A stretch of 32,000 nt of DNA from Acaryochloris marina MBIC11017 (GTDB taxonomy: Bacteria; Cyanobacteriota; Cyanobacteriia; Thermosynechococcales; Thermosynechococcaceae): assembly GCF_000018105.1 (NCBI RefSeq), contig NC_009925.1, forward strand, positions 2,580,001 through 2,612,000. Reading direction: 5' to 3'. Under the pieces are notes generated by a model, which was given only the letters and a program-made list of their open reading frames with translations, ran no database searches and had not been told where the DNA came from. Below, one piece after another: positions 2,326-21,491 of the stretch (positions are counted from its first letter, which is position 1; each line of letters starts with the position of its first letter). The position numbers and the translations under genes are program-made.

Positions 2326-2394
2326 ATATCCAACTTGTTGATATAAAACTTGTTGAGTATTACATCGATAGCTTATACTCAACTTGTTGGATAT
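2326..2394. promoter_or_regulatory. Divergent promoter/operator region with three CAAC-TT-GTTG motifs
   Basis: caacttgttg occurs at 2331-2340 and 2380-2389, and aaacttgttg at 2346-2355. A nested inverted repeat, GTTGAGTAT (2352-2360) / ATACTCAAC (2375-2383), is also present. All of this lies in the 72-nt gap between the adaptor start (2320) and the probable PadR ATG (2393). Confidence 0.45.
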
Positions 2395-2965
2395 GTCAAC
2401 GCCACCCCATCATCAATTCATGACCCTTGCCCACACGATTTTGACAGTTCTATCTGAGGCTCCCCACAGCGGCTACGACCTTAGTAAGCGCTTTGAGGAA
2501 TCAGTGAGCTGTTTTTGGAAAGCCAGTCAGCAGCAGATTTATCGAGAGTTATCCAAGATTGAAACCCAAGGCTGGGTAACCCATGAGCTGGTTCCCCAAC
2601 AGGGCAAGCCTGATAAAAAGGTCTACCAAATTACCGAGATGGGCAAACAAGAGCTGCTGAACTGGTATGCAGAGCCGTCCACACCGACTCCCATCCGCGA
2701 AGATTTATTAGTAAAGGTCTTGGCAGGCCCCTATGTTCCCCGTCCACTGCTGATCCAGCAGGTCAAAGCTCGTCAAGCATTACATCAGCAACAATTGGAA
2801 CGCTATCTAGAAAAGGAAGCCTGTTTTCAACAGTTAGAAACTGTAGAGCCAGCGTTGAAGTTCCGGTATTTCACCCTTAGACGAGGGATTCGATACGAGC
2901 GAGAATGGATTGATTGGTGCCAAGAAGTGATTGATACTCTAAAAGCAGATACCAGTTTGTACTAA
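2384..2965 (+). CDS. PadR-family transcriptional regulator
   Basis: The winged-helix segment ILTVLSEAPHSGYDLSKRFEESVSCFWKASQQQIYRELSKIETQGWV...GKPDKKVYQITEMGKQEL is typical of PadR. The track start is TTG at 2384; ATG at 2393 (MSTPPHH...) is the more likely start. The gene is divergent from the efflux operon. Confidence 0.8.
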   Translation: MLDMSTPPHHQFMTLAHTILTVLSEAPHSGYDLSKRFEESVSCFWKASQQQIYRELSKIETQGWVTHELVPQQGKPDKKVYQITEMGKQELLNWYAEPSTPTPIREDLLVKVLAGPYVPRPLLIQQVKARQALHQQQLERYLEKEACFQQLETVEPALKFRYFTLRRGIRYEREWIDWCQEVIDTLKADTSLY

Positions 2966-3762
2966 TCCTCAGACTGTTGATGCAGACGGTGTTGCCAGAG
3001 AGTATCAACGATAATGATGAACGCCGTGGGCACACAGCCAAAGATCAACACGAGCACTCCCCATATAATGAAGATAACCAGCGGCCCTTCAAAACCCTCT
3101 ATACCTGCCACTTCAAAGAAGAAACGCTGACCGTCTAAATATTGAATACTGTTGCCATTCTGCTCTATAGCGAACAGTGCTTGATAGTACGGGTAGTGAT
3201 CGTTGGCAACCTGGTCTCCCCTGGCACTGACAAAGGCTCGCTTATGTCCTGCTTTTGTTTTGCCAATCAGAACAACTCCCTGTAGAAAATCTTGGGTATA
3301 TCCTTCATCAGGCGTAGCAATAATCGGAGACTGCAGCATTGCCGAATAGATAGCTAAGGCCTCCTGCACATTATGCTCAAAGGATGAGGGTAGCTTCCCC
3401 TGAGCTTGCAAATGATTCAGAAGAGGCTTGGCATTAGGGGAGTAAGGAGCACCTTGCGAACTATTCAGTATTTCAACCAAGGTCGATTGTTTATCAATGG
3501 TTAATCCACAGGGTTTATCCGTATCGCAGAAATCTGTTCTAATCGGAATTAAGTGCTCTACTTCTATAATGTTTTTAGCGGACCCCAGCAACCCAGGACG
3601 CACAATTAGATAACCCCAAAATTCATAATGCACCCATAAAGTGCCTATCAAAGCAAAAACAGCCATACCAACCAAGTAAGACCAGGCAAATCGGACGAGC
3701 TTTCTTGAAGAGCTGAAGAGATGTATTGGCATCTGTATATCCCGTGAGGAATGGGTCACCAT
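2962..3762 (-). CDS. Uncharacterised two-TM membrane protein, tandem paralog A
   Basis: 266-aa ORF sharing a collinear architecture and motifs with the ORFs at 3979-4764, 4954-5691 and 7200-7985. Shared elements are an N-terminal TM, CDxxxxC, GKLPSSF, QSPIIA, RAFxS, DHYPYYQA, QYLDGQRFF and a C-terminal TM. By alignment to paralog B, the internal ATG at 3732 (MPIHLFSS...) is the likelier start. Confidence 0.7.
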   Translation of the reverse strand: MVTHSSRDIQMPIHLFSSSRKLVRFAWSYLVGMAVFALIGTLWVHYEFWGYLIVRPGLLGSAKNIIEVEHLIPIRTDFCDTDKPCGLTIDKQSTLVEILNSSQGAPYSPNAKPLLNHLQAQGKLPSSFEHNVQEALAIYSAMLQSPIIATPDEGYTQDFLQGVVLIGKTKAGHKRAFVSARGDQVANDHYPYYQALFAIEQNGNSIQYLDGQRFFFEVAGIEGFEGPLVIFIIWGVLVLIFGCVPTAFIIIVDTLWQHRLHQQSED

Positions 3763-3924
3763 TTCTTGAGACCTGAAATTATTTATATGAGAATTGAGGG
3801 AAGCATTACGGTGATCTGGGATCTCTATATTGCAAATCTCAACCTTTTTGTGCGGTGATTTTGAGCACTCCGGTCCCTAGTTTTAACGGGGTATCTTCTC
3901 TAGATATAGCCCCATGTTTCTTCC

Positions 3925-3950
3925 ATAAAAAGGCATCTGGCATTGTGCCT
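3925..3950 (-). terminator. Weak candidate intrinsic terminator after paralog B
   Basis: The minus strand reads AGGCA-caatgccaga-TGCCT followed by TTTTTAT. The stem is only 5 bp with a 10-nt loop. Confidence 0.3.
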
Positions 3951-3978
3951 GTACCTCTCTAGTCAGAGATCAGCTAGC

Positions 3979-4764
3979 TTACTCAAGCGGCGTAAGAGAT
4001 GGAGGACGGTTCCAGAAAGCATCAATAATGATGACGATCGCTGTTGGAAAACCGCCAAAAATAATCACCATAGCGAAAAATAGAAACATGGCAAACGGTA
4101 AACCATCAGCCCCCTCGATACCTGCGACCTCATAAAAGAAACGCTGACCTTCCAGATATTGAGCAGTCCTACCATTCTGCTCTATGGTAAAAATCGCTTC
4201 ATAAAAGGGGTAATGATCATTCTCAACTTGGCCTCCTCGGAGACTCAGAAATGCATGTTGTTGACCAGACGCAGTTCTACCAATCAAAATTGTTCCCCGT
4301 AGGTATCGATTGGTGTAACCCTCAGTAGGATGGGCAATAATTGGAGATTGCATCATCGCACCATACAAATCCAGCCCTTTTGGCAACGTCTGATCAAACG
4401 ATGAAGGTAGCTTTCCCGCAGTCTGTAAATGGCGTAGCAGGCGCTCATCAAGGCTATCGTAGTACGGATCATAATAAGGGTCCTGCTCAGATTTGTTGAG
4501 GATTTCTGAGATCGTCTGAGAGTTGTCCAAGTCAAACTTGCACTCTTCAGGCACATCGCATGTGGATGTATCGACTGAGACCAAGTGTTCCACTTTTGTA
4601 ATCGTTTTGGCAGCTTCGAGTAAACCTGGACGCTCCAACAGAAAGCCCCAATATTCATAGGTCATCCACAGAGAACCCACAAAGCTTACAGGCAAAACAC
4701 CTAAAAAATAGCACAGCGCAATACGAACGGGCTTACTAATAGAGCTGAATAGTGGTTCTTTCAT
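3979..4764 (-). CDS. Uncharacterised two-TM membrane protein, tandem paralog B
   Basis: 261-aa ORF from the same family (CDVPEEC, GKLPSSFD, MQSPIIAHP, HAFLS, DHYPFYEA, QYLEGQRFFYEVAGIEG). Hydrophobic helices are present at both ends. Confidence 0.75.
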   Translation of the reverse strand: MKEPLFSSISKPVRIALCYFLGVLPVSFVGSLWMTYEYWGFLLERPGLLEAAKTITKVEHLVSVDTSTCDVPEECKFDLDNSQTISEILNKSEQDPYYDPYYDSLDERLLRHLQTAGKLPSSFDQTLPKGLDLYGAMMQSPIIAHPTEGYTNRYLRGTILIGRTASGQQHAFLSLRGGQVENDHYPFYEAIFTIEQNGRTAQYLEGQRFFYEVAGIEGADGLPFAMFLFFAMVIIFGGFPTAIVIIIDAFWNRPPSLTPLE

Positions 4765-4893
4765 CTGTCTTTCTCGTTAATAGCACACGCATAACAATGA
4801 GCCTGTCATCCCTTCGCATCGACTTAATCTCTTCTGAATCCTCTTTGAAGAAGGAAAGCATCATTGCCTAATTCAAGGGTGTTTTCGAGTTGG
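4748..4893 (-). repeat. B-type leader: start codon region plus about 130 nt upstream of paralog B; copy 1 of a duplicated non-coding segment
   Basis: Collinear with 5853-5997. The first ~65 nt are close to 80% identical by eye (atagtNgttctttcatctgtNttNctc...aatagcaNacgca...tgtcatc). Later blocks also match (catcaNNNcNNaNNtcaaNgNtgNtttcNagttg). Confidence 0.6.
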
Positions 4894-4953
4894 TTCTTGC
4901 GTCGAACACCACATCTTTATCAAGGCAACAGCAGATCTTAATTCAAGCGCCGA

Positions 4954-5691
4954 TCAAGAAGTCGTTGATCGACGCCAGTACTGAATACCCTTGCTGATAG
5001 CCAAGATTATTACAGAGACAATTCCAAAGACCACTATCAGCAGAATGAAATAGACAATAGGCAACACAGTTTCGTCGAAATCCAAAGAGAAAAATCGCTG
5101 GCCGTCTAAATATTGAACTGTTTGGCTACTCGGCTCTATCTTGAACATTGCTTCATAGTAGGGATAGTAGTCTTCAGCAATCTGGCTCCCTGAGACACTA
5201 AGGAAGGCACGTTTTTCTCCAGAGGCTGTTTCACCCATTAAAATCACCCCTGACAAGTACTCGTTGCTGAACCCAGGTGACGGCGTGGCAATAATAGGAG
5301 ACTGCATTAGAGACGTATGCAAATCTGCAATTCCTTGCAAATTGTGGTCAAAGGAAGAGGGCAGCTTCCCCATAGTTTGTAGATAAAGTAGAAGACGTTC
5401 TTCTTCCCTATGGAGCTGTGGATCGTAGTGAGCCGCGATAGTTTGAGATGTATCAACGATAAACTTACATTGTTCGGGCCTATCGCAATCTGATGTCTTA
5501 ACTGGTATCAATCGATCCAACTTGACAATGGTCTTGGCTGTATCGAGTACAGCAGGACGCTCAAACAAATACCCTAAAGTTTCATAGCTCAGCCACAGTG
5601 AGCCTAAACAGGCCAGAAGAAACGTTCCCAGGAAGTAAAATGGGGCAACCTTAACCCTATTTTTCTTGGGTTTGAAGAACTGTTTAGTCAT
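4954..5691 (-). CDS. Uncharacterised two-TM membrane protein, tandem paralog C
   Basis: 245-aa ORF from the same family (CDRPEQC, GKLPSSFD, MQSPIIATP, RAFLS, DYYPYYEA, QYLDGQRFF). Confidence 0.75.
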   Translation of the reverse strand: MTKQFFKPKKNRVKVAPFYFLGTFLLACLGSLWLSYETLGYLFERPAVLDTAKTIVKLDRLIPVKTSDCDRPEQCKFIVDTSQTIAAHYDPQLHREEERLLLYLQTMGKLPSSFDHNLQGIADLHTSLMQSPIIATPSPGFSNEYLSGVILMGETASGEKRAFLSVSGSQIAEDYYPYYEAMFKIEPSSQTVQYLDGQRFFSLDFDETVLPIVYFILLIVVFGIVSVIILAISKGIQYWRRSTTS

Positions 5692-5750
5692 GAATTTTAC
5701 ACTGCACTAGTCTGAGTAAACGCGCCAAGGCCATCTGTAACAAGGCTATG

Positions 5751-5855
5751 CAGTAGTCATACATCCCTTGCATGTGCCTAAGCGGTGACACGGATAAAAC
5801 GTAAATGTGATCTGGTGATGCTCAAACGATGGATGTAGAGCGGACGTTTAGGTGA
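5751..5855 (-). repeat. D-type leader, copy upstream of paralog C
   Basis: Aligns with 8003-8100. It shares an identical cagtagtcatacat and about 27/32 matches over gtgaYacggataaaMcgNNaatgtgatNtggt, and ends in a shared taggtga. It lies 60 nt upstream of the paralog C ATG. Confidence 0.6.
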
Positions 5856-5997
5856 TAGTAGTTCTTTCATCTGTTTTGCTCATCAATAGCAAACGCAATT
5901 AAGAGTGAACTTGTCATCACTCAGTCCCCACCCAGAATTTTCCACATATCTCATTGGGGGCAGAGTCATCACCCAACTCAAAGCTGATTTCAAGTTG
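5853..5997 (-). pseudogene. Remnant of a fifth paralog: B-type leader plus only the first ~5 codons (ATG at 5870)
   Basis: The minus strand reads ATGAAAGAACTACTAT..., against ATGAAAGAACCACTAT at the start of paralog B. Homology is lost after ~5 codons, where the sequence joins the D-type leader. The upstream ~130 nt are collinear with 4765-4893. Confidence 0.55.
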
Positions 5998-6074
5998 ATG
6001 CATCAGGCGACTTATCCAACTCTTGTGGTCAAGGGACCCGGCAAAGGACTATTTACTCCCTTCCCGCCATAAGA

Positions 6075-6632
6075 TTATGGAACAAGTGAAAATATAAAAT
6101 TCAGGCTGTTTTGAACTTGTTCAGCCGATAGAAACTGGTTAGCAGCAAAGAACTCATGGAGCTGTTGTTTGATCTGTGTCAGGGTCGTTCCAAGAGGGAG
6201 ATGGTGCAGACATCGTAAGCGTAGTAAGTGAATCACATATTCAACCAAGTTCAACTTGGGAGAGTAGGACGGCAAATATAAAAACTCAACTTGAATCGAT
6301 TGGGTGAGCCCCATCTGCTCTAGATGGATAGCGAGTTGGGAGCGCATCTTGCCCTTATGGGTCGGATTGTTATCGAGAATAAGGCACAGTTGAGTGTAGC
6401 CCAGCTCAACGCTATCCAGACATAGGTCTGCAAAGTACTCAGAGATATCTTCTGTTTTAGCCTGTGGGCTCAGAGCGAAATACTCTTCGCCACTGTGGGC
6501 ATCGACGCACAGTAACCCATTGAGCTTGTTGCGAGCCCGCTCATTACTCTTGACCTGTGGACGAGTGTTGCGTTCTGCCCAGCCATAGAACAACCTAGGA
6601 CGCTCAGACACCGCAAATTCGTCAAAGAACAA
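6075..6632 (-). CDS. IS630-family transposase, C-terminal DDE part (ORF B)
   Basis: Motifs LCLILDNNPTHKG and YLPSYSPKLNLVEY are typical of the DD(35)E catalytic domain of the IS630/Tc1-mariner group. The reading frame stays open upstream to the A7 run at 6663-6669. Confidence 0.8.
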   Translation of the reverse strand: MFFDEFAVSERPRLFYGWAERNTRPQVKSNERARNKLNGLLCVDAHSGEEYFALSPQAKTEDISEYFADLCLDSVELGYTQLCLILDNNPTHKGKMRSQLAIHLEQMGLTQSIQVEFLYLPSYSPKLNLVEYVIHLLRLRCLHHLPLGTTLTQIKQQLHEFFAANQFLSAEQVQNSLNFIFSLVP

Positions 6633-6639
6633 GATGCGC

Positions 6640-7173
6640 TCATCCGATTGTCGTGATTGCAGTTTTTTTAACAGCCGCCACCCACTCTTTCTGGGCGTTC
6701 AGGTCAGCATTCGCATAGTCACGATGGGCGCGTTGGTAAGATAACCCCAACTCTGATAGCAATTCGTAGATACGCGAATCTTTCAGCTGCACCTCGAAAC
6801 GCTGCTCAATCACAACGGCTAAAATTGCACCTGTCCACATATTGCGGTCAATACCATAGTCTGTCGGACGTTGCGTCAGAACCATCTCTTTGAGTTGTTG
6901 TTGTTCCTCTGGGCTCAACCGACTAGGTTTTTGATGTCGAATGGGTTGGACCAAGCCCTGGAGTCCACCATCGAGATATTTGTCCATCCAACGCGTTAAC
7001 GTATCATAGCTACACCCCACTTGTTCGCTCACTTGGGTACGACTGTGTCCTTCATTCAGCAATTTGATCGCGGTCAAGCGCTGTCGAATGTAGTGTTGTT
7101 GATTGCGGTAGTAGAATTTCTGCCACTCATCCGCATCAAAAGGCTTGTCCAGAAAGGCTTGTGTTCGATTCAA
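6640..7173 (-). CDS. IS630-family transposase, N-terminal DNA-binding part (ORF A)
   Basis: Helix-turn-helix segments are present (RLTAIKLLNEGHSRTQVSEQVGCSYDTLTRWMDKY; WTGAILAVVIEQRFEVQLKDSRIYELLSELGLSYQR). The ORF ends 8 nt before the first Met of ORF B, in a different frame. Confidence 0.8.
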   Translation of the reverse strand: MNRTQAFLDKPFDADEWQKFYYRNQQHYIRQRLTAIKLLNEGHSRTQVSEQVGCSYDTLTRWMDKYLDGGLQGLVQPIRHQKPSRLSPEEQQQLKEMVLTQRPTDYGIDRNMWTGAILAVVIEQRFEVQLKDSRIYELLSELGLSYQRAHRDYANADLNAQKEWVAAVKKTAITTIG

Positions 7174-7199
7174 TGTGACTATTTGCTCTTTTCCCCATT

Positions 7200-7985
7200 T
7201 TACAGCGGGAAGGGAGTAAAGGGCAACGACGTCGATCTTCCACGCTGCATATCCTCACAAATCGCTGGGATAATGGCAGGTAAACTACAAAAAACCAGCA
7301 GTATAAAAGTGAAATAGAACATCGTCATCCCGATTTCGTCAAAATCTTCATCAAAGCGAAACCCATGCCCCTCAAGATATTGAACGGATTCATCTTTCGC
7401 CCCCATCTTGAAAATCGCTTGATAGTAAGGTACGCCTCTATCCGTAACGGGGTAACTATAGGCACTGATAAAGGCTCGTTGCTCTCCACTGGATGTTTCA
7501 CCGACCAAGAGAATCCCCCGCAGATACCGATTTGTTGCTCCTTCATCCAGAGAGTCGATAATCGAAGACTGCATCATCGGCGTATATAAATCTGCAATCC
7601 CTTGCAAATCACGGTCGAAGGCAGACGGTAACTTGCCTTGCTTGTGCAAATGAAGCAGAAGATATTCTTTCAGCTTGCCATTCTGTTGATAGTAATAAGT
7701 GGAGATAGTCTGAGTGGGATCAACGATAAATTTACAGCTTTCTTGCTGATCACAATCTAAGGTTGTGATTGGAATCAAGCGATCAACTTTGGTAATGGTC
7801 TTCGCCGCATCGAGTAGATCTGGATGCTTAATTACAGCGTCCCAGCCTAGGTATGACAGAATGGTCACCCCTACGAAGTAAGCTAGGACAATCTTCTTCT
7901 TACCCGCAACTTTGAATAGCTTATTGGTCATGAGTTGTACATCACACTGGCCTGATGCAGAGCGGAGCAACGAGGCCAGGTCCAT
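7200..7985 (-). CDS. Uncharacterised two-TM membrane protein, tandem paralog D (most divergent; 3' end altered by the IS630 insertion)
   Basis: Same family (CDQQESC, GKLPSAFD, MQSSII, RAFIS, VPYYQA, QYLEGHGFRF). ATG at 7931 (MTNKLFK...) aligns better with the other paralogs than the track start at 7985. The last five codons and the stop are encoded by the right IS end. Confidence 0.65.
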   Translation of the reverse strand: MDLASLLRSASGQCDVQLMTNKLFKVAGKKKIVLAYFVGVTILSYLGWDAVIKHPDLLDAAKTITKVDRLIPITTLDCDQQESCKFIVDPTQTISTYYYQQNGKLKEYLLLHLHKQGKLPSAFDRDLQGIADLYTPMMQSSIIDSLDEGATNRYLRGILLVGETSSGEQRAFISAYSYPVTDRGVPYYQAIFKMGAKDESVQYLEGHGFRFDEDFDEIGMTMFYFTFILLVFCSLPAIIPAICEDMQRGRSTSLPFTPFPL

Positions 7986-8197: not shown

Positions 8198-9229
8198 TCA
8201 AAAATGTTGTAGGAAATGAACAACATCTAAATGCTGATTTTCTAACGCATAATCTATTGCCGTCTTCTGTTCCGCATCTTCATGTTTTGGATCTGCACCA
8301 GATTCCAGCAAAAGTTTTACAACAGAGAGCGATCCAGATTTAGCAGCTTCCAGTAAAGCAGTTGTCTTGTTATGAGTCATCGCATTGACATCCGCACCAA
8401 AACTGATCAACATCGCAACAATTTCGGGCTGCTTCGTTCGCATAATGGGGGTCATATCGTCATAGTCATCCGCTAAATTAGGATCAGCTCCAGATTCCAG
8501 TAAAGCGAGAGTCACTGGTAGTCGAAACTCTTCGAATCGCTTAATAACGGCAAGGTTTAATAGTGTTGATCCGCTCCGACAAAAATCATTGAGGGGGATA
8601 TCTGCCATTAAGAGTTTTTTGATTCCATCAACATCCCCCTCAAACACCACATCATAAGCAGTTTCCATCACAGGATTGATATTTTCATCTCTATACTTCT
8701 GTCGAATCCCTTTCTGCAAGAAATGCGCTGCATCACCCAATAATTCTGGTTGCGTCATGGGAAGTAAGAAGTCGTAAATATCCTGATGCCCCGACAAGGC
8801 AGCATAAATAATGGGCGGTTCTCCCAATACAGTTTGATTGGCATTCGCCCCAGCGCTAACCAAGAGCTGAACAAGATCTAAATATCCTTTGTCAGCCGCA
8901 ATAAATAATGGAGGATCAACCTCACGATGGATTGGCAGCGAAGGATTTGCACCCGCATTTAGCAGAGTAAAAACAATTTCATAATGATTGGCATATACTG
9001 CAGCAGTGAGTGCCGTTTCTTCCCCTACCGTAAGGTTTATATCTGCACCGTACTTGATCAATCGCTTTAATATTTCTAGACTTCCAGCCTGAGAGGCATG
9101 CTGCGCAGCACTGGCTAATTCCAGATCGCTCCATTGATTCTCAGCCAATATAATCTTGAACTGATCTAGATGATTACTGTTAATGGCATCCGTTAAGTTA
9201 AGCCACTCATAATTGATGCTTTCTGGCAT
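8198..9229 (-). CDS. Ankyrin-repeat protein
   Basis: 343 aa built almost entirely of ANK units (G(A/S)D(I/P/A)N..., LH/LL-A(A)--G----V--LL-(S/A)GA). Examples are LKRLIKYGADINL, TLLNAGANPSL, QLLVSAGANANQ, ALLESGADPNL, MLISFGADVNA and LLLESGADPKH. No signal peptide or TM helix is present. Confidence 0.85.
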   Translation of the reverse strand: MPESINYEWLNLTDAINSNHLDQFKIILAENQWSDLELASAAQHASQAGSLEILKRLIKYGADINLTVGEETALTAAVYANHYEIVFTLLNAGANPSLPIHREVDPPLFIAADKGYLDLVQLLVSAGANANQTVLGEPPIIYAALSGHQDIYDFLLPMTQPELLGDAAHFLQKGIRQKYRDENINPVMETAYDVVFEGDVDGIKKLLMADIPLNDFCRSGSTLLNLAVIKRFEEFRLPVTLALLESGADPNLADDYDDMTPIMRTKQPEIVAMLISFGADVNAMTHNKTTALLEAAKSGSLSVVKLLLESGADPKHEDAEQKTAIDYALENQHLDVVHFLQHF

Positions 9230-9884: not shown

Positions 9885-10553
9885 CTAATACACACCAATC
9901 GTTTTAATCGTCAGGCGAAACTCCCCCGGACTAAACCGAGGATTCAACGCCCCATCATATTCAAACTTACTCAACATCATCTGCATCGCTCGAATTTGAT
10001 GTGCCCCAATTAAAGGGGCATCATTCACCGTTTTGGCCCGAAATACAGGCGTCAACTGATTAAAGGGAATCCGAACCGTGATCCATTGTTGGGCCACCGT
10101 ATCAAATGAGTAGGCATAGGCAATACTGTCCCACCGATCTTGATCGCGCAGCAAAAACTTGTAGCGTTGGCCGTCCCCCTTCACCTGTAATTCAATCCCT
10201 TGGTGGGCCGATAGATTGAGGGGCGGATCGAAATTGCGCGTCCGCACCGAGGCAAACCCACCCGAATTCGCCGTCGAGACCTTGCCCGTAAATAGAGCAA
10301 CGCCTGACTCTTGACGCAAGCCACTATTGCTTACCCCCCCCATCACCACATCATCGACCGCTCCCCAGAGCTGGCTAATATCATTGACCTGGCTAAAGTC
10401 AAAGATGAGATTGGCTTGCACAGGGGGTGGGGCAGGGGGCGTAAATCCAGGCATCATTTTTTGAAACCAGTTGAGAACAGGAATTTCTTCAAAGTAGGAC
10501 AGGGTTTGCAGAAAACGGCCTGCATCCCAGGATTGGCGGGTCGGTTCAGCCAT
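9885..10553 (-). CDS. CIA30 (complex I intermediate-associated protein 30) domain protein
   Basis: W..VDDVVMGGVSNS...F.G.VS..N.GGFASVR... and the later KF.L matrix are typical of the CIA30 beta-sandwich domain. Length 222 aa. Confidence 0.7.
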   Translation of the reverse strand: MAEPTRQSWDAGRFLQTLSYFEEIPVLNWFQKMMPGFTPPAPPPVQANLIFDFSQVNDISQLWGAVDDVVMGGVSNSGLRQESGVALFTGKVSTANSGGFASVRTRNFDPPLNLSAHQGIELQVKGDGQRYKFLLRDQDRWDSIAYAYSFDTVAQQWITVRIPFNQLTPVFRAKTVNDAPLIGAHQIRAMQMMLSKFEYDGALNPRFSPGEFRLTIKTIGVY

Positions 10554-10608
10554 AGAATTGCTACTCAGCCAAAGAGAGGTCCGCCTTAATTGTAAGCATG
10601 AACTCCCA

Positions 10609-11829
10609 TTAGCCTTCTATTTGAGTCGCTAATTTTTTCCCCGCCCATTCCGACAAAATGGGGCCTAATAGGCAAGTGACGACAATATAGGCAATCACCG
10701 CATTAAAGATATTGTCATCCACTAAGCTGGCTTCTTTGCCAAATAACGTAATCACCAACACTAATGCCGCGCGGGGAATCGTCAAGCTGAACAGAGTCAA
10801 CACTTCCATCGGTTCATAGTTAAACCAGCGACCGACTATCCAGGCCGACAGCCATTTAGAGGCGACAGCACCCCCCACAATAACCCCAGCAATGCCTAAA
10901 CTACCGGGTGCCGATACAAACACGGTCGGATTAGCCAACACGCCCACCGACACCATAAACGCCGGAATAAAGAGACTATTACCGACAAAATCAATCCGGT
11001 TCATCAAATCGCTCTCCATGGGAATCGAACGATTCAAGGCCAAACCGGCAATAAAAGCCCCCACAATCGAATCTACCCCTAATCCCTGAGTGGCAGAGGC
11101 AATCACAAATAATGTGGCCACTACAAAAATAAACTGTAGCCCCAGGGAGACCTCTGCTTTGGGATTAAAAAAACAGTGCCCCAGTTGCGGAACACCCCAA
11201 AAACAGAGGGTCGTTAACAGCGGTAAACCCACCAGTAATTTTAGCCATAGGACTAACCCGATTTGCCCCTCGGCCATCGCCTGAATCAAGGCAAAGCCGA
11301 CTAACGTGAGTATTGCCGTCAGTACCGTTCCTCCCACCGCAACCCCAATAGATTCTCGCTGGGCCAACCCTAGCCGGGTCATACTCGGATAGGCCAACAG
11401 AGTATGAGGTGAATACAAAATTCCCAGTAATGCAGAAGCCAACCCACTCGAACCAGCCACTGCGATGATACCCATGCTGATCATCACCTGACCGGACACG
11501 ACGCCCACTGCGAAAGGCAGGCCAAAGGTGAGCAACCCAAACATAAGCGCTCGTACACCCAATCGCTGTAAGTCGCTCAGATCCATTTGCAGACCTGCTA
11601 GCAACATAATGTAGAGCAGACCCACTTTTTCTAAAAAAATCAGCTGGGTATCTCGGGCAATAATGCCTAAGCCATTACTACCTAACAAACAGCCTAAAAG
11701 GATGAGCACCACCAAAGCAGGCAGCTTTAAAGGCTTGGCAATCAGCGGTGCCAGCAGCAAAATGACCAGCAGCACACTAAAGGCATAGACCGGATCTTGT
11801 AAAGGTAGAATCAACGTCGCCATGGACAT
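10609..11829 (-). CDS. Cation:proton antiporter (CPA family, Na+/H+ exchanger-type membrane domain)
   Basis: 406-aa polytopic membrane protein with about 11-12 hydrophobic helices. The N-terminus (VLLVILLLAPLIAKPLKLPALVVLILLGCLLGSNGLGII) is typical of Kef/NapA-type exchangers. Confidence 0.75.
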   Translation of the reverse strand: MSMATLILPLQDPVYAFSVLLVILLLAPLIAKPLKLPALVVLILLGCLLGSNGLGIIARDTQLIFLEKVGLLYIMLLAGLQMDLSDLQRLGVRALMFGLLTFGLPFAVGVVSGQVMISMGIIAVAGSSGLASALLGILYSPHTLLAYPSMTRLGLAQRESIGVAVGGTVLTAILTLVGFALIQAMAEGQIGLVLWLKLLVGLPLLTTLCFWGVPQLGHCFFNPKAEVSLGLQFIFVVATLFVIASATQGLGVDSIVGAFIAGLALNRSIPMESDLMNRIDFVGNSLFIPAFMVSVGVLANPTVFVSAPGSLGIAGVIVGGAVASKWLSAWIVGRWFNYEPMEVLTLFSLTIPRAALVLVITLFGKEASLVDDNIFNAVIAYIVVTCLLGPILSEWAGKKLATQIEG

Positions 11830-14982: not shown

Positions 14983-15260
14983 TGTGAGCAGCAGAAAACA
15001 ACTCTTTAGATTATCACCTGGGACCGAACAATACGGATATATTAATTGAGATTGGCTTTTTTAATAAGAAATACTAATATTTATTTTTGCAAAACACCTC
15101 ATATTCAATTTAAAAATGTTATATTTGATACAGAAATTAAATCGTTCATCCCTTAACTCGTCTTTAACTCTATTCTTAGTAGTCAAGGGACGGAAGTAGA
15201 GCCTTCGCTCGAAGGAACGCGCCTCAAATCTATACCCATCATTATGATCGGAGGCGAATC

Positions 15261-15710
15261 ATGAAACTTACTTATCGCGGTGTTAATTACGACTACAATC
15301 CCCCTGCAGTAGACATGACTTCTAGTGAAGAAGTCGGTCAATATCGTGGATTGGAGTGGAGATTTAGAAACGCTCAAAAACCCCCGGTGATGCAACCCAG
15401 TCTTAACTTGGTTTACCGAGGCGTTGCCTATGAAACAGGCACCCCAGAGCCAGAAGTTGCACCCACCTATACCCCAGCACCTACCACACCTGTGGCTGCT
15501 CCTGCTATTTTGACCGTTCAAAATATGGCTCGGTCATTAATGACATCCCACCACCGCTGGATCAAAAACCGTCAGCAAGCCCTGCTCAGCCGCTCTGCCG
15601 CTGAAGTTGGCTTAAGTGCGGATGCGGCCCATTACTGGAATCATATTCAAGGCAAGGTCCATCCCAGCTTCCGTGGTAGCTATGATCGCTCCCATGCGGC
15701 CTTGAGCTAA
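15261..15710 (+). CDS. DUF4278 domain protein
   Basis: The N-terminus MKLTYRGVNYDYNPP and a second L.YRGV.Y motif are characteristic of the cyanobacterial DUF4278 family. A GGAGG-like RBS (cggaggcgaatcATG) precedes the start and a strong terminator follows the gene. Confidence 0.75.
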   Translation: MKLTYRGVNYDYNPPAVDMTSSEEVGQYRGLEWRFRNAQKPPVMQPSLNLVYRGVAYETGTPEPEVAPTYTPAPTTPVAAPAILTVQNMARSLMTSHHRWIKNRQQALLSRSAAEVGLSADAAHYWNHIQGKVHPSFRGSYDRSHAALS

Positions 15711-17312: not shown

Positions 17313-19367
17313 TCAGTTCAAATTGAGCTGGGGATTTTCCATCAATTCACTGAAATCATTGAGATCCACACAGCGCTGCTGATCCAGCTGTTGCAAGTAG
17401 CGCTTTTCTTGGTAATAGAGCCGTTTAATTTCATCCAGCTCTTGCAGACAATAGGAGTCTTCCTCTAGTAAACTCTGGGCCTGCTCCGATTCATCCATCA
17501 ACATCTGTTGTAGATAAGTGTTGAGGATTTGCCGCTGACCCAGTTCTTTTTTTGCGGATTTCATCGCCGATTCCCACATTTGCAGCAGATGCCGACAGCG
17601 CTTCTCACACGCGATCCGCTCTAGACTAGCCGCTGCTGCCCGAATGGAGAGGTTGGGGCGGAGGATATCCAGTTCTGTTTTTTCGTTCAGCTGAATCAGG
17701 TGGTAAACCTGCTGCATTTCCTGCGAATACTCGGTACAAAGATCCTGGACCACAGCGATTAGATCAAAGGCAGGGGCTTCCAGTTCAGGATGTAAGGGCT
17801 CTAACTTGGCCTGATCATCTTCAATGGCTAAAATTTGCCGCCATAGAAACCGATGGTGGGAAAAACTGAATTCTATATCCCGCTGTTTCATGGCGTTGTG
17901 AATATCTTGCCGAAACTGGGGTCGATGCAGATAAATACGAAGGATTTGGGCTTCCGCTGCTTCCCGCAGGGTGTAGTCGGCCGGGCGCTGCCATTTTTGC
18001 GATCGCCCATGCCAGCGTTGGCCGCGAACCTGCTGGCGCAGCGCTTCTTCCAGCTGCAGGGCCAAGCGAGAATCCCCCTGACTGAGGAGGCCTGCACAGC
18101 GATGGGTATAGTGGGTGCGCAGGGTGGCGTTGGGCAGCTTTCCTAAAATAGCCGCAATGGCTTCCGTGGCTGCTTGGAACTGTTCGGCCTGCTGCAAATC
18201 CCGATCTTGCAGAGCCCGGTGAATTTGCCAGTCTAGCCACAGGGGGGACTCATCGAGCAAATCCAGATAGTCTTCTGCCGTATACTCCTGCAGATACTCA
18301 TCCGCATCTTTGCCATTGGGCAAATTCAAGACTCGGAGCTGAACTTCACCCCGATAGGCCTGGTCTTCAACTTCAGAAATCGCTCGTTCTGCGGCTTTAC
18401 CGCCTGCTGCATCCGCATCGAAATTGAGAATGACCTGTTTGGATTCGGTGTAACGCAGCAACTGCCGCATCTGGTCCAAGCTTAGGGCTGTTCCCATAGA
18501 GGCAACGGCATTAGTGATGCCTACAGAATGCAGGGCAATCACGTCAAAATAGCCTTCGACCACCACCGCCCGGTCGGCCTTGACGATGGTTTGCCGAGCT
18601 TTATCTAGACCAAATAGGAGTTTGCCTTTATTGAAGAGTTCTGTTTCTGGGGAGTTGAGATATTTGGGTTCCTCTCCTGTGAGGGTGCGGCTGCCAAATC
18701 CCACCACCCGGCTTTGGGCATCGTGGATCGGTATCATTAAGCGATCGCGGAACCGATCGTAATATCCATCCCCAGACTTGCGGGGCACAATCAATCCTGC
18801 CTGCTGGACCAATTCTGGGCTAAATCCCTTCTCCTGAACCAACACATCATGGAGGGTACTCCAGCCTCCCGGAGCATAGCCCAGCTGAAAGGTTTGAATG
18901 GTTTCATTGCTGAGTCCCCGCTGGTTACGCGCATAGCGGAGGGCATTTTGGCCCTGGGGCTGGCGGAGGGCATGTTCGTAATACCGACTTGCGATCGCCA
19001 AAATCTCATAGAGCTGCTCTCGCAGGGACAGCTTACGGGCTAGCTTTTTCTCTTCGTCTTTAGCGAGGGTTTGGATAGGAACTTGACTGCGCTGGGCCAA
19101 ATCGAGGACGACTTCACTAAAGGACCGCTGGCCAATCTCCATCAAAAACTTGATGGCATTGCCACCAGCTCCACAGCCAAAGCAGTAATAGAACTGTTTC
19201 TCGGGGCTAACACTAAAGCTGGGGGTTTTCTCGTCGTGAAATGGGCAGCAGCCCACTAAGTTCCGCCCCTGCTTGCGCAAGCTGACATGCTCGGAAACCA
19301 CATCGACAATGTCGGTAGCTTGGCGAACCTGCTCAATCGTATCGGGGTGGAGGCGGGGCGTAGTCAT
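17313..19367 (-). CDS. dnaG: DNA primase
   Basis: It has a CHC2 zinc finger (CCPFHDEKTPSFSVSPEKQFYYCFGCGAGGNAIKF), an RNA polymerase core and a TOPRIM domain (VVVEGYFDVIALH...ILNFDADAAGGKAAERA). Length 684 aa. Confidence 0.92.
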   Translation of the reverse strand: MTTPRLHPDTIEQVRQATDIVDVVSEHVSLRKQGRNLVGCCPFHDEKTPSFSVSPEKQFYYCFGCGAGGNAIKFLMEIGQRSFSEVVLDLAQRSQVPIQTLAKDEEKKLARKLSLREQLYEILAIASRYYEHALRQPQGQNALRYARNQRGLSNETIQTFQLGYAPGGWSTLHDVLVQEKGFSPELVQQAGLIVPRKSGDGYYDRFRDRLMIPIHDAQSRVVGFGSRTLTGEEPKYLNSPETELFNKGKLLFGLDKARQTIVKADRAVVVEGYFDVIALHSVGITNAVASMGTALSLDQMRQLLRYTESKQVILNFDADAAGGKAAERAISEVEDQAYRGEVQLRVLNLPNGKDADEYLQEYTAEDYLDLLDESPLWLDWQIHRALQDRDLQQAEQFQAATEAIAAILGKLPNATLRTHYTHRCAGLLSQGDSRLALQLEEALRQQVRGQRWHGRSQKWQRPADYTLREAAEAQILRIYLHRPQFRQDIHNAMKQRDIEFSFSHHRFLWRQILAIEDDQAKLEPLHPELEAPAFDLIAVVQDLCTEYSQEMQQVYHLIQLNEKTELDILRPNLSIRAAAASLERIACEKRCRHLLQMWESAMKSAKKELGQRQILNTYLQQMLMDESEQAQSLLEEDSYCLQELDEIKRLYYQEKRYLQQLDQQRCVDLNDFSELMENPQLNLN

Positions 19368-20537
19368 CCAGGTTGAGAGGGCAATTTGACACCCATTCCG
19401 TGGGAGAAGCGGGAGGCTAAGGCAGTGAGGATTTTAAAAGCTGAACACCAATAGGGACGATATCTCTACAGCAGGATCAACAGGGATCAACACGACAGGC
19501 TGATAGAGATTTCAATAGTGCAAGCATACTACTTTATGGTTCCCTATTTGATCGTTTCGGTTTAGATTTTAGCAGTTTAATTTCGATGAGCTGAGGATCA
19601 TTGCAAAGGTTTATTGGCAGATGGGTGTCGAGGAGAGCCAGAAATCCCCGGAGAAAGACTGTTTTCATTCCGCCAGTTAATTTTCACATCCTGAAACCTC
19701 GTGAGTAGCACAAGGATCTATTGATTGATAAACACCCCAGATTTTCTCTCAGAGGTTGACCTTGCTCCTCTTAATACACTCGGCAATCATCACGACTCAT
19801 CAATGGATTGCAAGTATGGATCCCTTTATATTGCTACAGCATGAACCAAAGGAAGCTTGATTTATCCTACACAATGTTCTGGTTTGTTTTGACCCTTTCT
19901 ATCTAGATCTATTCAGAAGAAAAACAAGATTATTATTTATTAAATGAATAATTTGATAGCTTGAATGAGTTAGTAAAATTAATGAATTTTTGTAAGAATA
20001 TGCATAATTTAGCTCAATTGATCAGAAGTTATTATGTGCCTAACCCTTAAAATCTTTAAGGATAGTTATCTATTGCAGACGATCTGTTTTTTAGTGTGTA
20101 TATTTGAATGAGATACAGCTCATCACGTCTAGATACTCATCTCTTGTGGTAGCTTACTATCCTTGTATTGAAAGCTTAATGAACCATTGAGTCTTGAGTC
20201 GTTTCGCCTCAAGAACGTTAAGCCCATTGACCCGCTAAAGCGATAGAAACCTCTTACAATAGTCGTTTCATGATGTGTTATCACTCAATTTATGCTGCGA
20301 ACTAGCTTAGATTTTTGAGTCCTCTACCATACCGTTAGCTGACTGATATCAGACGTCTAATCTAAAGATTCTCCATTTTTAGATAGCCCAGACAATTGGC
20401 TATTCTGAACATCCATAAAATAATGGTTTCTTCGTGAAGCACAATAGCATCTTCGGCAAGATTCAAGCACTTGTACCGCATATTTATATAGCTTTAATTG
20501 GCCTCTTTATTAAATATTTAAAACAGGTATCAGGCTT

Positions 20538-21491
20538 ATGATTATCATTGTTTCAAATCGTCGGGTGAACGAGGATCAAACCGATCACCGCTTGTTTGGA
20601 GAACGGGCGAATGTGAATGGTCTCGATGAAATTCGTTTAGCAACCGCTGACTACGATGAACCCTCACAACGGTGGCATCTATCCCTCGTTCCCGAAGGCG
20701 ATCTAGATGATGAAGACAGCCGCCCTAGCCACCAATTATTTCAGCGCGTTATGGCCGGGATTCAGGCCGGTCAGCATCAGAAAAACTGGGTGTTTTATAT
20801 TCACGGATTTAATCAATCCATGTTAGACAATCTCAATGCTTGTCGTGAAATCCAAACCCTCTATGACGTGGATGTCATTACCTTTGCATGGCCCTCGAAT
20901 CCAGGAGGGTTTGTGCTTGGCGAATATCAGCGCGCGCGACAGGCCGCTAGAGCATCCAGTAATGCCCTAGATCGCACCTTAGAACTGCTCGGGCGCTACC
21001 TAGCTAGCCGTTCCCTGGTAGAGATGCGGAACTGCCAGATTAGCCTAAATCTCCTCGTGCATAGCTTAGGCAATTATTTATTTGAGGATTTTGTCCGGGA
21101 TCCGGTCTTTAGTGATGAAACTCGCATCTTCGACAACATTATCTTTCACCAAGCGGATGCCGATAATCGCAACCATGCTCAATGGGTTGATCGCGTAGAG
21201 CATGGTCGCCGTATCTACATCACCCTCCATGAGGATGATTCAACCCTCAAAGCATCTGACATTATCAATCCAGGTCGCTTGGGCAATACCCTGGCCAATT
21301 TAAATGCCCAACGAGCAATCTATCTCGATTTTACGAATGGAGAGAATGTCGGCCGGTCCCATAACTTTTTTGATGGTCAGATTGAGAATGTCACCATCCA
21401 AACCATTTTTACCCGTCTACTCAATGGTCAGCGAGGAGAAACCGTAGCTGGCTTAAGCTTCGATCCAACCCTGAATGCTTTTCGGCTATAG
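20538..21491 (+). CDS. Alpha/beta hydrolase, DUF900-like (putative lipase/esterase)
   Basis: WVFYIHGFNQS (oxyanion region) and LLVHSLGNYL (nucleophile elbow; Ser codon at 21063-21065) match the DUF900-type alpha/beta hydrolase pattern. Length 317 aa, no signal peptide. Confidence 0.65.
   Translation: MIIIVSNRRVNEDQTDHRLFGERANVNGLDEIRLATADYDEPSQRWHLSLVPEGDLDDEDSRPSHQLFQRVMAGIQAGQHQKNWVFYIHGFNQSMLDNLNACREIQTLYDVDVITFAWPSNPGGFVLGEYQRARQAARASSNALDRTLELLGRYLASRSLVEMRNCQISLNLLVHSLGNYLFEDFVRDPVFSDETRIFDNIIFHQADADNRNHAQWVDRVEHGRRIYITLHEDDSTLKASDIINPGRLGNTLANLNAQRAIYLDFTNGENVGRSHNFFDGQIENVTIQTIFTRLLNGQRGETVAGLSFDPTLNAFRL

Follow-up and report, generated by a model that had tools for sequence, protein, structure and literature searches.

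Four selectively maintained tandem paralogs of an un-named membrane protein family in Acaryochloris marina

Our results show that four neighboring genes, here called A to D, are functional and selectively maintained genes that go back to ancient tandem duplications in Acaryochloris marina. They lie within the window, that is, the whole stretch of 32,000 nucleotides that was analysed, as intact minus-strand open reading frames (ORFs) of 245-266 aa. Paralog A occupies positions 2962..3762 (AM1_2544 ortholog, BDM82290; longest ORF 266 aa), B 3979..4764 (AM1_2546 ortholog, BDM82291; 261 aa), C 4954..5691 (AM1_2547 ortholog, BDM82292; 245 aa) and D 7200..7985 (AM1_2551 ortholog, BDM82295; longest ORF 261 aa). 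The true start of A is probably M11 (nt 3732), giving 256 aa, and that of D is probably M19 (nt 7931), giving 243 aa. By their mutual homology (33-50% identity; tblastn E 1e-40 to 1e-85), the four are real paralogs, as the original prediction had stated. According to that prediction, the array originally held at least five copies. However, a tblastn search with all four paralogs against the window (E <= 10) found no additional copy, fragment or remnant, and none came to light when the D-C spacer was compared with that of strain L009, which lacks the insertion sequence (IS) described below and has exactly four copies.

The position and order of the genes are kept in four A. marina strains, either as D-C-B-A or as D-B-A; strains L010 and L011 have three copies each, with C absent. 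All 14 ortholog ORFs examined in these four strains are intact, and the ω values between orthologs are 0.16-0.33 at dS >= 0.3, with every copy under purifying selection. Regional ω does not exceed 0.67, and no protein region comes near ω = 1. The most constrained region is the β-meander of the predicted domain, with ω of 0.08-0.23, and this includes paralog D (0.11-0.23). The paralogs themselves have diverged at dS > 1. The term "diversifying", which had been applied to this array, is therefore not supported, because the paralogs are ancient, each position has its ortholog across strains, and no region evolves near neutrality. At first glance, the genes might be regarded as non-functional remnants, namely decaying duplicates that keep their ORFs by chance, because the IS sits at the end of D, family-invariant residues have been lost from both C and D, and C is missing in two strains. 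However, the integrity of all orthologs, ω values that stay well under 1 in all copies and regions, including the β-meander of D, and an insertion that alters only the last residue of D leave this reading essentially refuted, and we give it almost no credence.

The IS was correctly recognized in the original prediction. It is an IS630-type element of 1161 bp on the minus strand (6056..7216), consisting of a DDE_3 ORF (6075-6632) and an HTH ORF (6640-7173) between terminal inverted repeats of approximately 24 nt, with a TA target duplication at 6054-6055 and 7217-7218. These are the features that define the IS630 family, with the HTH N-terminal to the DDE_3 part of the transposase. The element entered a TA within the penultimate codon of D, and the last five codons and the stop of D (7200-7217) are IS-derived, so that the native end ...LPFK* became ...LPFTPFPL*. 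Strain L009 has the empty site, CCC TTT AAA TAG, and its D-C spacer aligns collinearly with that of the window (89% identity).

Two compositional features had also been attributed to the block. It is AT-richer than its surroundings, with a GC content of 45.3% vs. 49.2% for the window, but the difference is modest and the low-GC stretch runs on to about 9500, beyond the array. The block is indeed free of HIP1 sites (0 in 5 kb; expected 1.9, P(0) = 0.15), but this absence is not significant because the window carries only 12 HIP1 sites in 32 kb. We therefore rejected HIP1 depletion of the array alone as a sign of foreign origin.

All four proteins have a basic N-terminus with 3-6 K/R ahead of the first transmembrane (TM) segment, a hydrophobic segment at each end and a domain of approximately 180 aa in between, which agrees with the architecture originally described. 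The basic N-terminus, the basic C-tails and a Cys pair in the domain agree with a predicted N-in/C-in topology, as judged from the sequence. This Cys pair (C69/C75 in B) is >=90% conserved across the Acaryochloris clade and conserved only within that clade. TM1 cannot be a cleaved signal peptide, because its equivalent is the third TM segment in 4-TM relatives. The collinear motifs that had been listed for the four proteins are all present, although RAF(V/L/I)S is inexact in that B reads HAF. AlphaFold models of B were confident, both for the full length (pLDDT 86.9, pTM 0.78) and for the domain at residues 40-221 (pLDDT 89.9, pTM 0.87), and they predict an α+β domain in which one long strand is followed by a helical insert and then by an antiparallel meander of four strands. 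Foldseek searches with the full and domain-only models against PDB, and against BFVD, returned no significant structural neighbor.

The four proteins belong to a family that is real, widespread, un-named and not specific to Acaryochloris. We define this "WGY-NDH-AGxEG" family by a core of TM segment, ~180-aa domain and TM segment that carries WGYxxxRP, (S)NDHYPYYE and FFYDxAGxEGxEW. A profile search recovered 449 clusters at E <= 1e-3, 265 at <= 1e-10 and 60 at <= 1e-30, including members from metagenome-assembled genomes labelled Fimbriimonadaceae, Armatimonadota, Thermoanaerobaculia and Pedobacter. Outside Acaryochloris, most members are single-copy genes of other phyla whose products have four TM segments, and A-D form a short 2-TM branch. 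Searches against Pfam, NCBIfam, PADLOC, PHROGs and, by profile, PDB sequences yielded no known family for A-D. At the curated cut-offs of Pfam-A and NCBIfam, A, B and D matched 0 families, and C matched only TraL at E 0.012, which is below the cut-off; this match and a saposin match (E 0.15) were discarded as noise. Moreover, 64 members of the broad family share no common Pfam or NCBIfam match. The earlier judgment that the family is uncharacterised is thus upheld. Its novelty is narrow: no characterised relative is detectable, which is different from a demonstrated new mechanism.

Scoring of 181 non-Acaryochloris members identified an invariant set of three blocks: W39-G40-Y41..R45-P46, where the chain leaves TM1; N182-D183-H184..Y188-E189, where the third strand of the meander begins; and D212.A214-G215.E217, immediately ahead of TM2. 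The Asp of NDH is 100% conserved, the flanking Asn and His are 97% conserved, and Glu, Asp and Arg residues are conserved too. Paralog B, the most canonical copy, keeps every one of these residues. Paralog A keeps nearly all of them (WGY..RP, NDHYPYY and AGIEG), with R108P and E189Q substituted, and represents the canonical lineage as well. Paralog C belongs to a degenerate lineage, with W39L, NDH replaced by EDY and the AG.EG motif deleted. Paralog D is the most degenerate (G40D, Y41A, R45H, R108Y, NDH replaced by DRG, A214D and G215F); it contains DRGVPYY and GHGFRF, as had been noted. The motif losses of D are real, yet its ω is far below 1, and both C and D are clear family homologs (E <= 1e-40) despite these losses.

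The family occurs in Acaryochloris as both chromosomal and plasmid copies. In 57/60 bootstraps, the plasmid subfamily falls into one clade with C and D; A and B cluster with proteins that are single-copy in other Acaryochloris species, and L001 has a B-like copy at the syntenic site. Judged by these residues and groupings, two old lineages coexist in the array: in the first the family-invariant residues were kept, and in the second they were lost. Duplicates are ~10-fold more numerous in Acaryochloris genomes than in most bacteria (Miller et al., 2011, PMC3156569; Garber et al., 2024, PMC11086944), and positive dosage is a documented route of duplicate retention in the genus (PMC11086944). The expansion of the array fits this known habit of keeping duplicates. 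We found no mention of AM1_2544, AM1_2546, AM1_2547 or AM1_2551 in the literature, PMC3156569 and PMC11086944 included.

What the proteins do can be approached from the location of the conserved residues. According to the predicted topology, each protein would be a TM hairpin with both termini in the cytoplasm and with the ~180-aa α+β domain on the outer side, in the periplasm or the thylakoid lumen. By chain connectivity, and not by model coordinates, the conserved residues are placed at the end of the domain that is nearest to the membrane. The presence of conserved polar residues near the membrane leads us to propose a putative polar site for binding or catalysis on the surface of the outer leaflet; this site might act on a membrane-embedded or envelope ligand. 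This site would have been retained by one lineage (B and A) and lost in the other (C, D and the plasmid copies), which is still constrained. Because the copies that lost the site are still constrained, they may be non-catalytic partner or regulatory subunits or may have acquired a new function; it is pure inference that they form hetero-oligomers with the canonical copies. We tentatively favor this reading, in which a putative envelope-facing site for binding or catalysis is located at the membrane surface and the subunits are of a canonical and a degenerate kind, and we hold it with less than even confidence.

However, conserved polar and aromatic residues at the ends of TM segments could simply steady the packing of the domain on the helices. 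A-D may thus be structural or scaffolding proteins of the envelope or the thylakoid membrane, in which the motifs lock the domain onto the TM hairpin and the paralogs are dosage or condition-specific isoforms. Aromatics and Gly/Pro abound among the conserved residues at the helix ends (WGY, RP and AG.EG.EW), as would be expected for interfacial anchoring; similarity to enzyme families is absent; and the dosage route cited above is documented in this genus (PMC11086944). Nevertheless, an invariant Asp flanked by nearly invariant Asn and His, together with the conserved Glu, Asp and Arg, goes beyond the usual need of anchoring, and the persistence under selection of lineages that lose these residues argues for functional divergence over dosage alone. 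We regard the scaffolding role as nearly as likely as the favored reading. Returning to the putative site, a more specific version is that the family constitutes an unrecognised class of membrane-surface enzymes or ligand binders, with a putative N-D-H/E/D/R site acting at the outer leaflet, e.g., on a lipid-linked envelope precursor or a lipid head group. The A. marina array would then be a multi-subunit version that pairs catalytic B and A with "dead" but conserved C, D and plasmid paralogs. This version is unlikely.

The original prediction had noted that diversifying arrays of this kind are typical of immunity, receptor or exclusion functions; read in this way, the proteins would protect against a toxin or phage. 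Diverged tandem membrane paralogs in a slightly AT-rich block with an IS within, additional copies on plasmids, and a defence candidate next to the array would be consistent with such a role. However, the Pfam content within ±10 kb comprises PadR, MFP, RND, ankyrin, FMN reductase, CIA30, Na/H exchanger and similar domains, and no toxin, secretion or defence domain occurs in this range. The paralogs had 0 PADLOC hits and no significant PHROGs match, and no family relatives were found in the phage GenBank set or the IMG/VR viral contigs; anti-phage defence and superinfection exclusion are thus not supported. The rapid turnover expected of such an array was likewise not observed, given the ω values, the order kept in four strains and the ancient duplications described above. 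The gene is also single-copy in 92/92 loci outside Acaryochloris, with no recurrent partner. We therefore consider this role very unlikely and conclude that the function is not that of an immunity or exclusion array. The defence candidate is the adjacent ankyrin protein, which matches PADLOC candidate PDC-M72A, probably via its repeats.

Partner genes were surveyed in ~11 curated contexts and the 92 loci, with 286 neighbor ORFs clustered. This survey revealed no conserved partner gene, and the neighbors that did recur were either ubiquitous ABC ATPases or stemmed from near-identical populations. One diverged neighbor or fusion partner recurs, a multi-TM protein with a C-terminal GMTxAQV...DGRV module that is fused in P0029, P0184 and P0189. 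This partner, itself uncharacterised, is limited to one non-cyanobacterial sub-clade and absent from the window. Adjacent GT4 glycosyltransferases (L014 and L015) and GNAT acetyltransferases (L022 and L024) occur in two contexts each, and such small numbers carry no weight.

The array is placed directly upstream of the MFP-RND genes and reads in the same direction as these in all four A. marina strains, and the end of A falls within the stop codon of the PadR gene, which is convergent with it, with a 4-nt overlap of the two stops. The paralogs may accordingly be viewed as accessory or co-regulated parts of this PadR-controlled efflux system, e.g., periplasmic adaptors or substrate-sensing partners. 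However, all three occurrences of the candidate PadR operator AACTTGTTG lie at 2332-2389, between the PadR and MFP genes, and it was found upstream of no paralog. Furthermore, linkage to RND genes is seen only in A. marina chromosomes: the plasmid copies, the single-copy gene of another Acaryochloris species (L002) and all non-cyanobacterial members are not beside RND genes, and at the other single-copy Acaryochloris locus (L001) the contig ends just past the gene. With an operator that is not shared and a linkage that is not conserved across taxa, we consider membership in the PadR regulon or an RND accessory role quite unlikely. No upstream regulatory element is shared by A-D; only the upstream regions of C and D align, because they are co-duplicated DNA. 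A promoter and terminator scan gave 10 promoter-like sites vs. 9.9 expected and 0 terminators.

If the activity of these proteins were defined, a function would be assigned to ~450 sequence clusters from several bacterial phyla that at present lack a name, a domain model and any structural relative. The A. marina array represents a natural experiment in which canonical and degenerate copies adjoin, each under selection, and it should be useful for studying the divergence of duplicated membrane proteins in a genome-expanding genus. Many such orphan families exist and tandem duplication is ordinary; we consider the importance of the case moderate until a phenotype is found.

Several known systems resemble parts of this array. 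The retained Acaryochloris duplicates (Miller et al., 2011, PMC3156569; Garber et al., 2024, PMC11086944) come from the same genus with its unusually many retained paralogs, some of them plasmid-borne, but those duplicates are mostly on different replicons and often recent, whereas here four old copies stand in tandem. The IS shares its HTH and DDE_3 transposase, length (~1.16 kb), terminal inverted repeats and TA duplication with IS630-family elements and differs in that the transposase is split over two ORFs. Polymorphic toxin and bacteriocin immunity arrays likewise place several diverged small membrane paralogs side by side; the present array differs in the absence of a toxin or secretion gene, in purifying selection, fixed order and ancient duplications, and in its single-copy orphans elsewhere. 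Finally, the weak recurring Foldseek matches are all of one type (AtzH, cystatins, fetuin, DUF3225, ToxS, TcpC and Tim21), with a best E of 0.39-0.44 and a TM-score <= 0.3 over 55-100 aligned columns, compared with E < 1e-3 or TM > 0.5 for assignment to the cystatin/NTF2-like fold. As in the membrane-anchored cystatin/NTF2-like rolls (VirB8/TcpC, Tim21/Tim44 and ToxS), an extracytoplasmic domain is held by TM helices, and in our own reading of the models the order of strand, helices and four-strand antiparallel meander resembles the α-β4 core. However, there is no sequence similarity, and the domain described here is anchored at both ends and has its own invariant motifs; the modelled resemblance is a lead and not a case of membership.

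Paralogs A (2962-3762), B (3979-4764), C (4954-5691) and D (7200-7985), all on the minus strand, are intact ORFs that share the collinear motifs proposed to unite them. By sequence comparison they are clear paralogs, with pairwise identities of 33-50% and tblastn E values of 1e-40 to 1e-85. Their proteins are BDM82290-82295 in A. marina MBIC10699 (chromosome AP026075.1; our locus L005 is its reverse complement), and the MBIC11017 equivalents of A, B, C and D are AM1_2544, 2546, 2547 and 2551. The same architecture emerges from hydropathy and from AlphaFold, namely a basic N-terminus, a first TM helix, an outside domain of ~180 aa and a second TM helix (approximately residues 11-39 and 222-252 for the two helices of B). 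The lengths of A and D vary among public annotations because the choice of start codon differs. Alignment with relatives suggests that the true starts are M11 for A (nt 3732) and M19 for D (nt 7931); the 18 additional codons of D match untranslated DNA 5′ of C.

Among 181 members from outside Acaryochloris, W39, G40, Y41, P46, R108, G157, N182, D183, H184, Y188, E189, D212, A214, G215 and E217 (numbering of B) are at least 95% conserved, D183 at 100%. In the AlphaFold model of B, WGY..RP lies at the end of TM helix 1, NDH..YE at the start of the strand 184-195, and D.AG.E between the strand 200-212 and TM helix 2. Judged from chain connectivity, not from coordinates, the three motifs should meet where the domain adjoins the membrane. 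At the surface of the outer leaflet they would then supply a polar N/D/H/E/R cluster, a putative site at which a ligand of the membrane interior or the envelope may be bound or acted on catalytically. All of the family-conserved residues are kept in B and all but two in A; W39, N182, H184 and the AG.E motif are missing from C, and D retains only a minority of the residues, without D183.

The array had been described as diversifying, and this description is not supported by the substitution patterns. Synonymous divergence between paralog pairs is saturated (dS 1.2-2.4); therefore, the duplications are old. Every ortholog in four strains is intact, with ω of 0.16-0.33 (dS 0.3-0.5), and we regard decaying DNA as a very improbable explanation of the locus. 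Regional ω nowhere approaches 1, and the tightest constraint, 0.08-0.23, falls on the β-meander, D included. Because C and D are degenerate yet still constrained, we tentatively favor a set of canonical subunits (B and A) accompanied by degenerate ones (C and D) that may be partners or neofunctionalised. A purely structural role for the proteins is nearly as likely, although still doubtful.

A neighbour-joining tree shows two lineages. The first joins C, D and a plasmid-borne subfamily (57/60 bootstraps) that includes one member on pREB7 (MBIC11017) and two on AP026078.1, a 303-kb plasmid of MBIC10699; the second joins A and B with single-copy proteins from other Acaryochloris species. The two AP026078.1 copies (1179-1964 and 9995-10753 of locus L014) are ~8 kb apart, one beside a GT4 glycosyltransferase and the other beside an eCIS_core-domain protein, and they bring the MBIC10699 total to at least six. 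On the chromosome, four copies occur at locus L009 (order D-C-B-A) and three at L010 and L011 (D-B-A). In Acaryochloris sp. IP29b_bin.176, the syntenic position lacks the ankyrin gene, the FMN reductase, D and C, and a B-like copy directly follows the Na/H exchanger and CIA30 genes; therefore, a canonical copy is the ancestral resident. Tandem duplication is ordinary for Acaryochloris. The genus is known to retain approximately 10-fold more duplicates than most bacteria (PMC11086944, PMC3156569).

Between C and D lies an IS630-type insertion sequence (6056-7216) with ~24-nt inverted repeats, a TA duplication and a transposase split into HTH (6640-7173) and DDE_3 (6075-6632) ORFs. The empty site in the IS-free strain at L009 reads CCC TTT AAA TAG, so the insertion point is the penultimate codon of D, and the effect on D is limited to its tail (...LPFK* became ...LPFTPFPL*). 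The IS-derived tail is present in strain MBIC11017 too. Three independent short-read assemblies end exactly at the D stop codon, which indicates that the element is multi-copy. Outside the element, the D-C spacer aligns collinearly with that of L009 (89% identity), and tblastn (E ≤ 10) found no further copy or fragment of A-D in the window. L009 also carries four copies, and the original prediction of at least five ancestral copies is not upheld. The block is indeed lower in GC than the window average, but the difference is modest (45.3% vs. 49.2%); likewise, it contains no HIP1 site, although such an absence over 5 kb is not significant.

The window also contains an AT-rich stretch of ~1.2 kb (19368-20537; GC ~0.36; longest ORF ≤ 51 aa) between dnaG (17313-19367, minus strand) and a 317-aa ORF (20538-21491, plus strand), with no Rfam or tRNA match inside it. 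A glutamine riboswitch (15141-15223, plus strand; Rfam RF01739, 51.5 bits, E 1e-8) directly precedes a DUF4278 ORF (15261-15710, plus strand), an arrangement that presumably resembles the leaders of cyanobacterial glutamine-synthetase inactivating factors.

The position of the array in A. marina is constant, with an ankyrin-repeat gene on one side and a PadR/MFP/RND efflux unit on the other. The PadR gene (2384-2965) and the MFP/RND genes (1007-2320 and beyond) are separated by a 63-bp divergent region, where the inverted repeat AACTTGTTG (CAAC-N2-GTTG) is found three times without mismatch at 2332-2389 (plus strand); these repeats are candidate PadR operators. An efflux-accessory role for the array is improbable, and weaker than a structural one: AACTTGTTG has no other exact match in the window, including upstream of A-D, and neither the plasmid copies nor the genes of other species are linked to RND genes. 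The 343-aa ankyrin-repeat protein (8198-9229, minus strand), which adjoins D in all A. marina strains, matches the PADLOC candidate PDC-M72A (E 2.6e-33), probably owing to its ankyrin repeats. An immunity or exclusion array, as originally proposed, is unlikely: no relatives were found among phage genomes and viral contigs, 92/92 loci outside Acaryochloris carry one copy, and clustering of 286 neighbour ORFs revealed no partner common to independent lineages. The exception is one non-cyanobacterial sub-clade in which the family gene is fused with, or lies beside, another uncharacterised multi-TM protein (L024 1991-3094; L026 1735-2634 and 3316-4473; L028 2-1063; L049 2238-3200; proteins P0029, P0184 and P0189). 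This partner ends in '...NWNSRKPFLKDFYR..GMTxAQV..YRHT..W..DGRV', it resembles Pfam BamE at no better than E 0.27, and it has no homolog in the window. The adjacency and fusion constitute a Rosetta-stone link joining two orphan membrane proteins.

A word-indexed search returned 24 clusters, all Acaryochloris-like. When 1.84 billion representatives were searched exhaustively with a profile, 449 matched at E ≤ 1e-3, of which 265 reached ≤ 1e-10 and 60 reached ≤ 1e-30. Members with a taxon label come from MAGs of Fimbriimonadaceae/Armatimonadota, Thermoanaerobaculia and Pedobacter; the others are unlabelled metagenomic sequences. The typical member has 320-380 aa and four hydrophobic segments, two additional N-terminal TMs preceding the TM-domain-TM core, and two-TM members such as A-D are a minority. 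In one two-TM relative (P0022; L023 6001-6786), the segment 'DPYYSL.ERIL.HLQAR..LPNSF' is tandemly duplicated inside the helical insert of the outside domain; therefore, this insert tolerates length variation.

The original observation is largely correct, and the family was rightly called uncharacterised, since it matches nothing in Pfam, NCBIfam, PADLOC, PHROGs or PDB sequence profiles, and Foldseek searches of PDB/BFVD with two confident AlphaFold models, full-length B (pLDDT 86.9, pTM 0.78) and its domain alone (85-sequence alignment; pLDDT 89.9, pTM 0.87), gave nothing significant (best E 0.39-0.44, TM ≤ 0.3). Its novelty, taken narrowly to mean that a characterised relative is not detectable, is high. 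The sole recurring Foldseek matches, weak and a lead only, are cystatin/NTF2-like rolls, and the order of strand, helices and four-strand meander in the outside domain fits such rolls.
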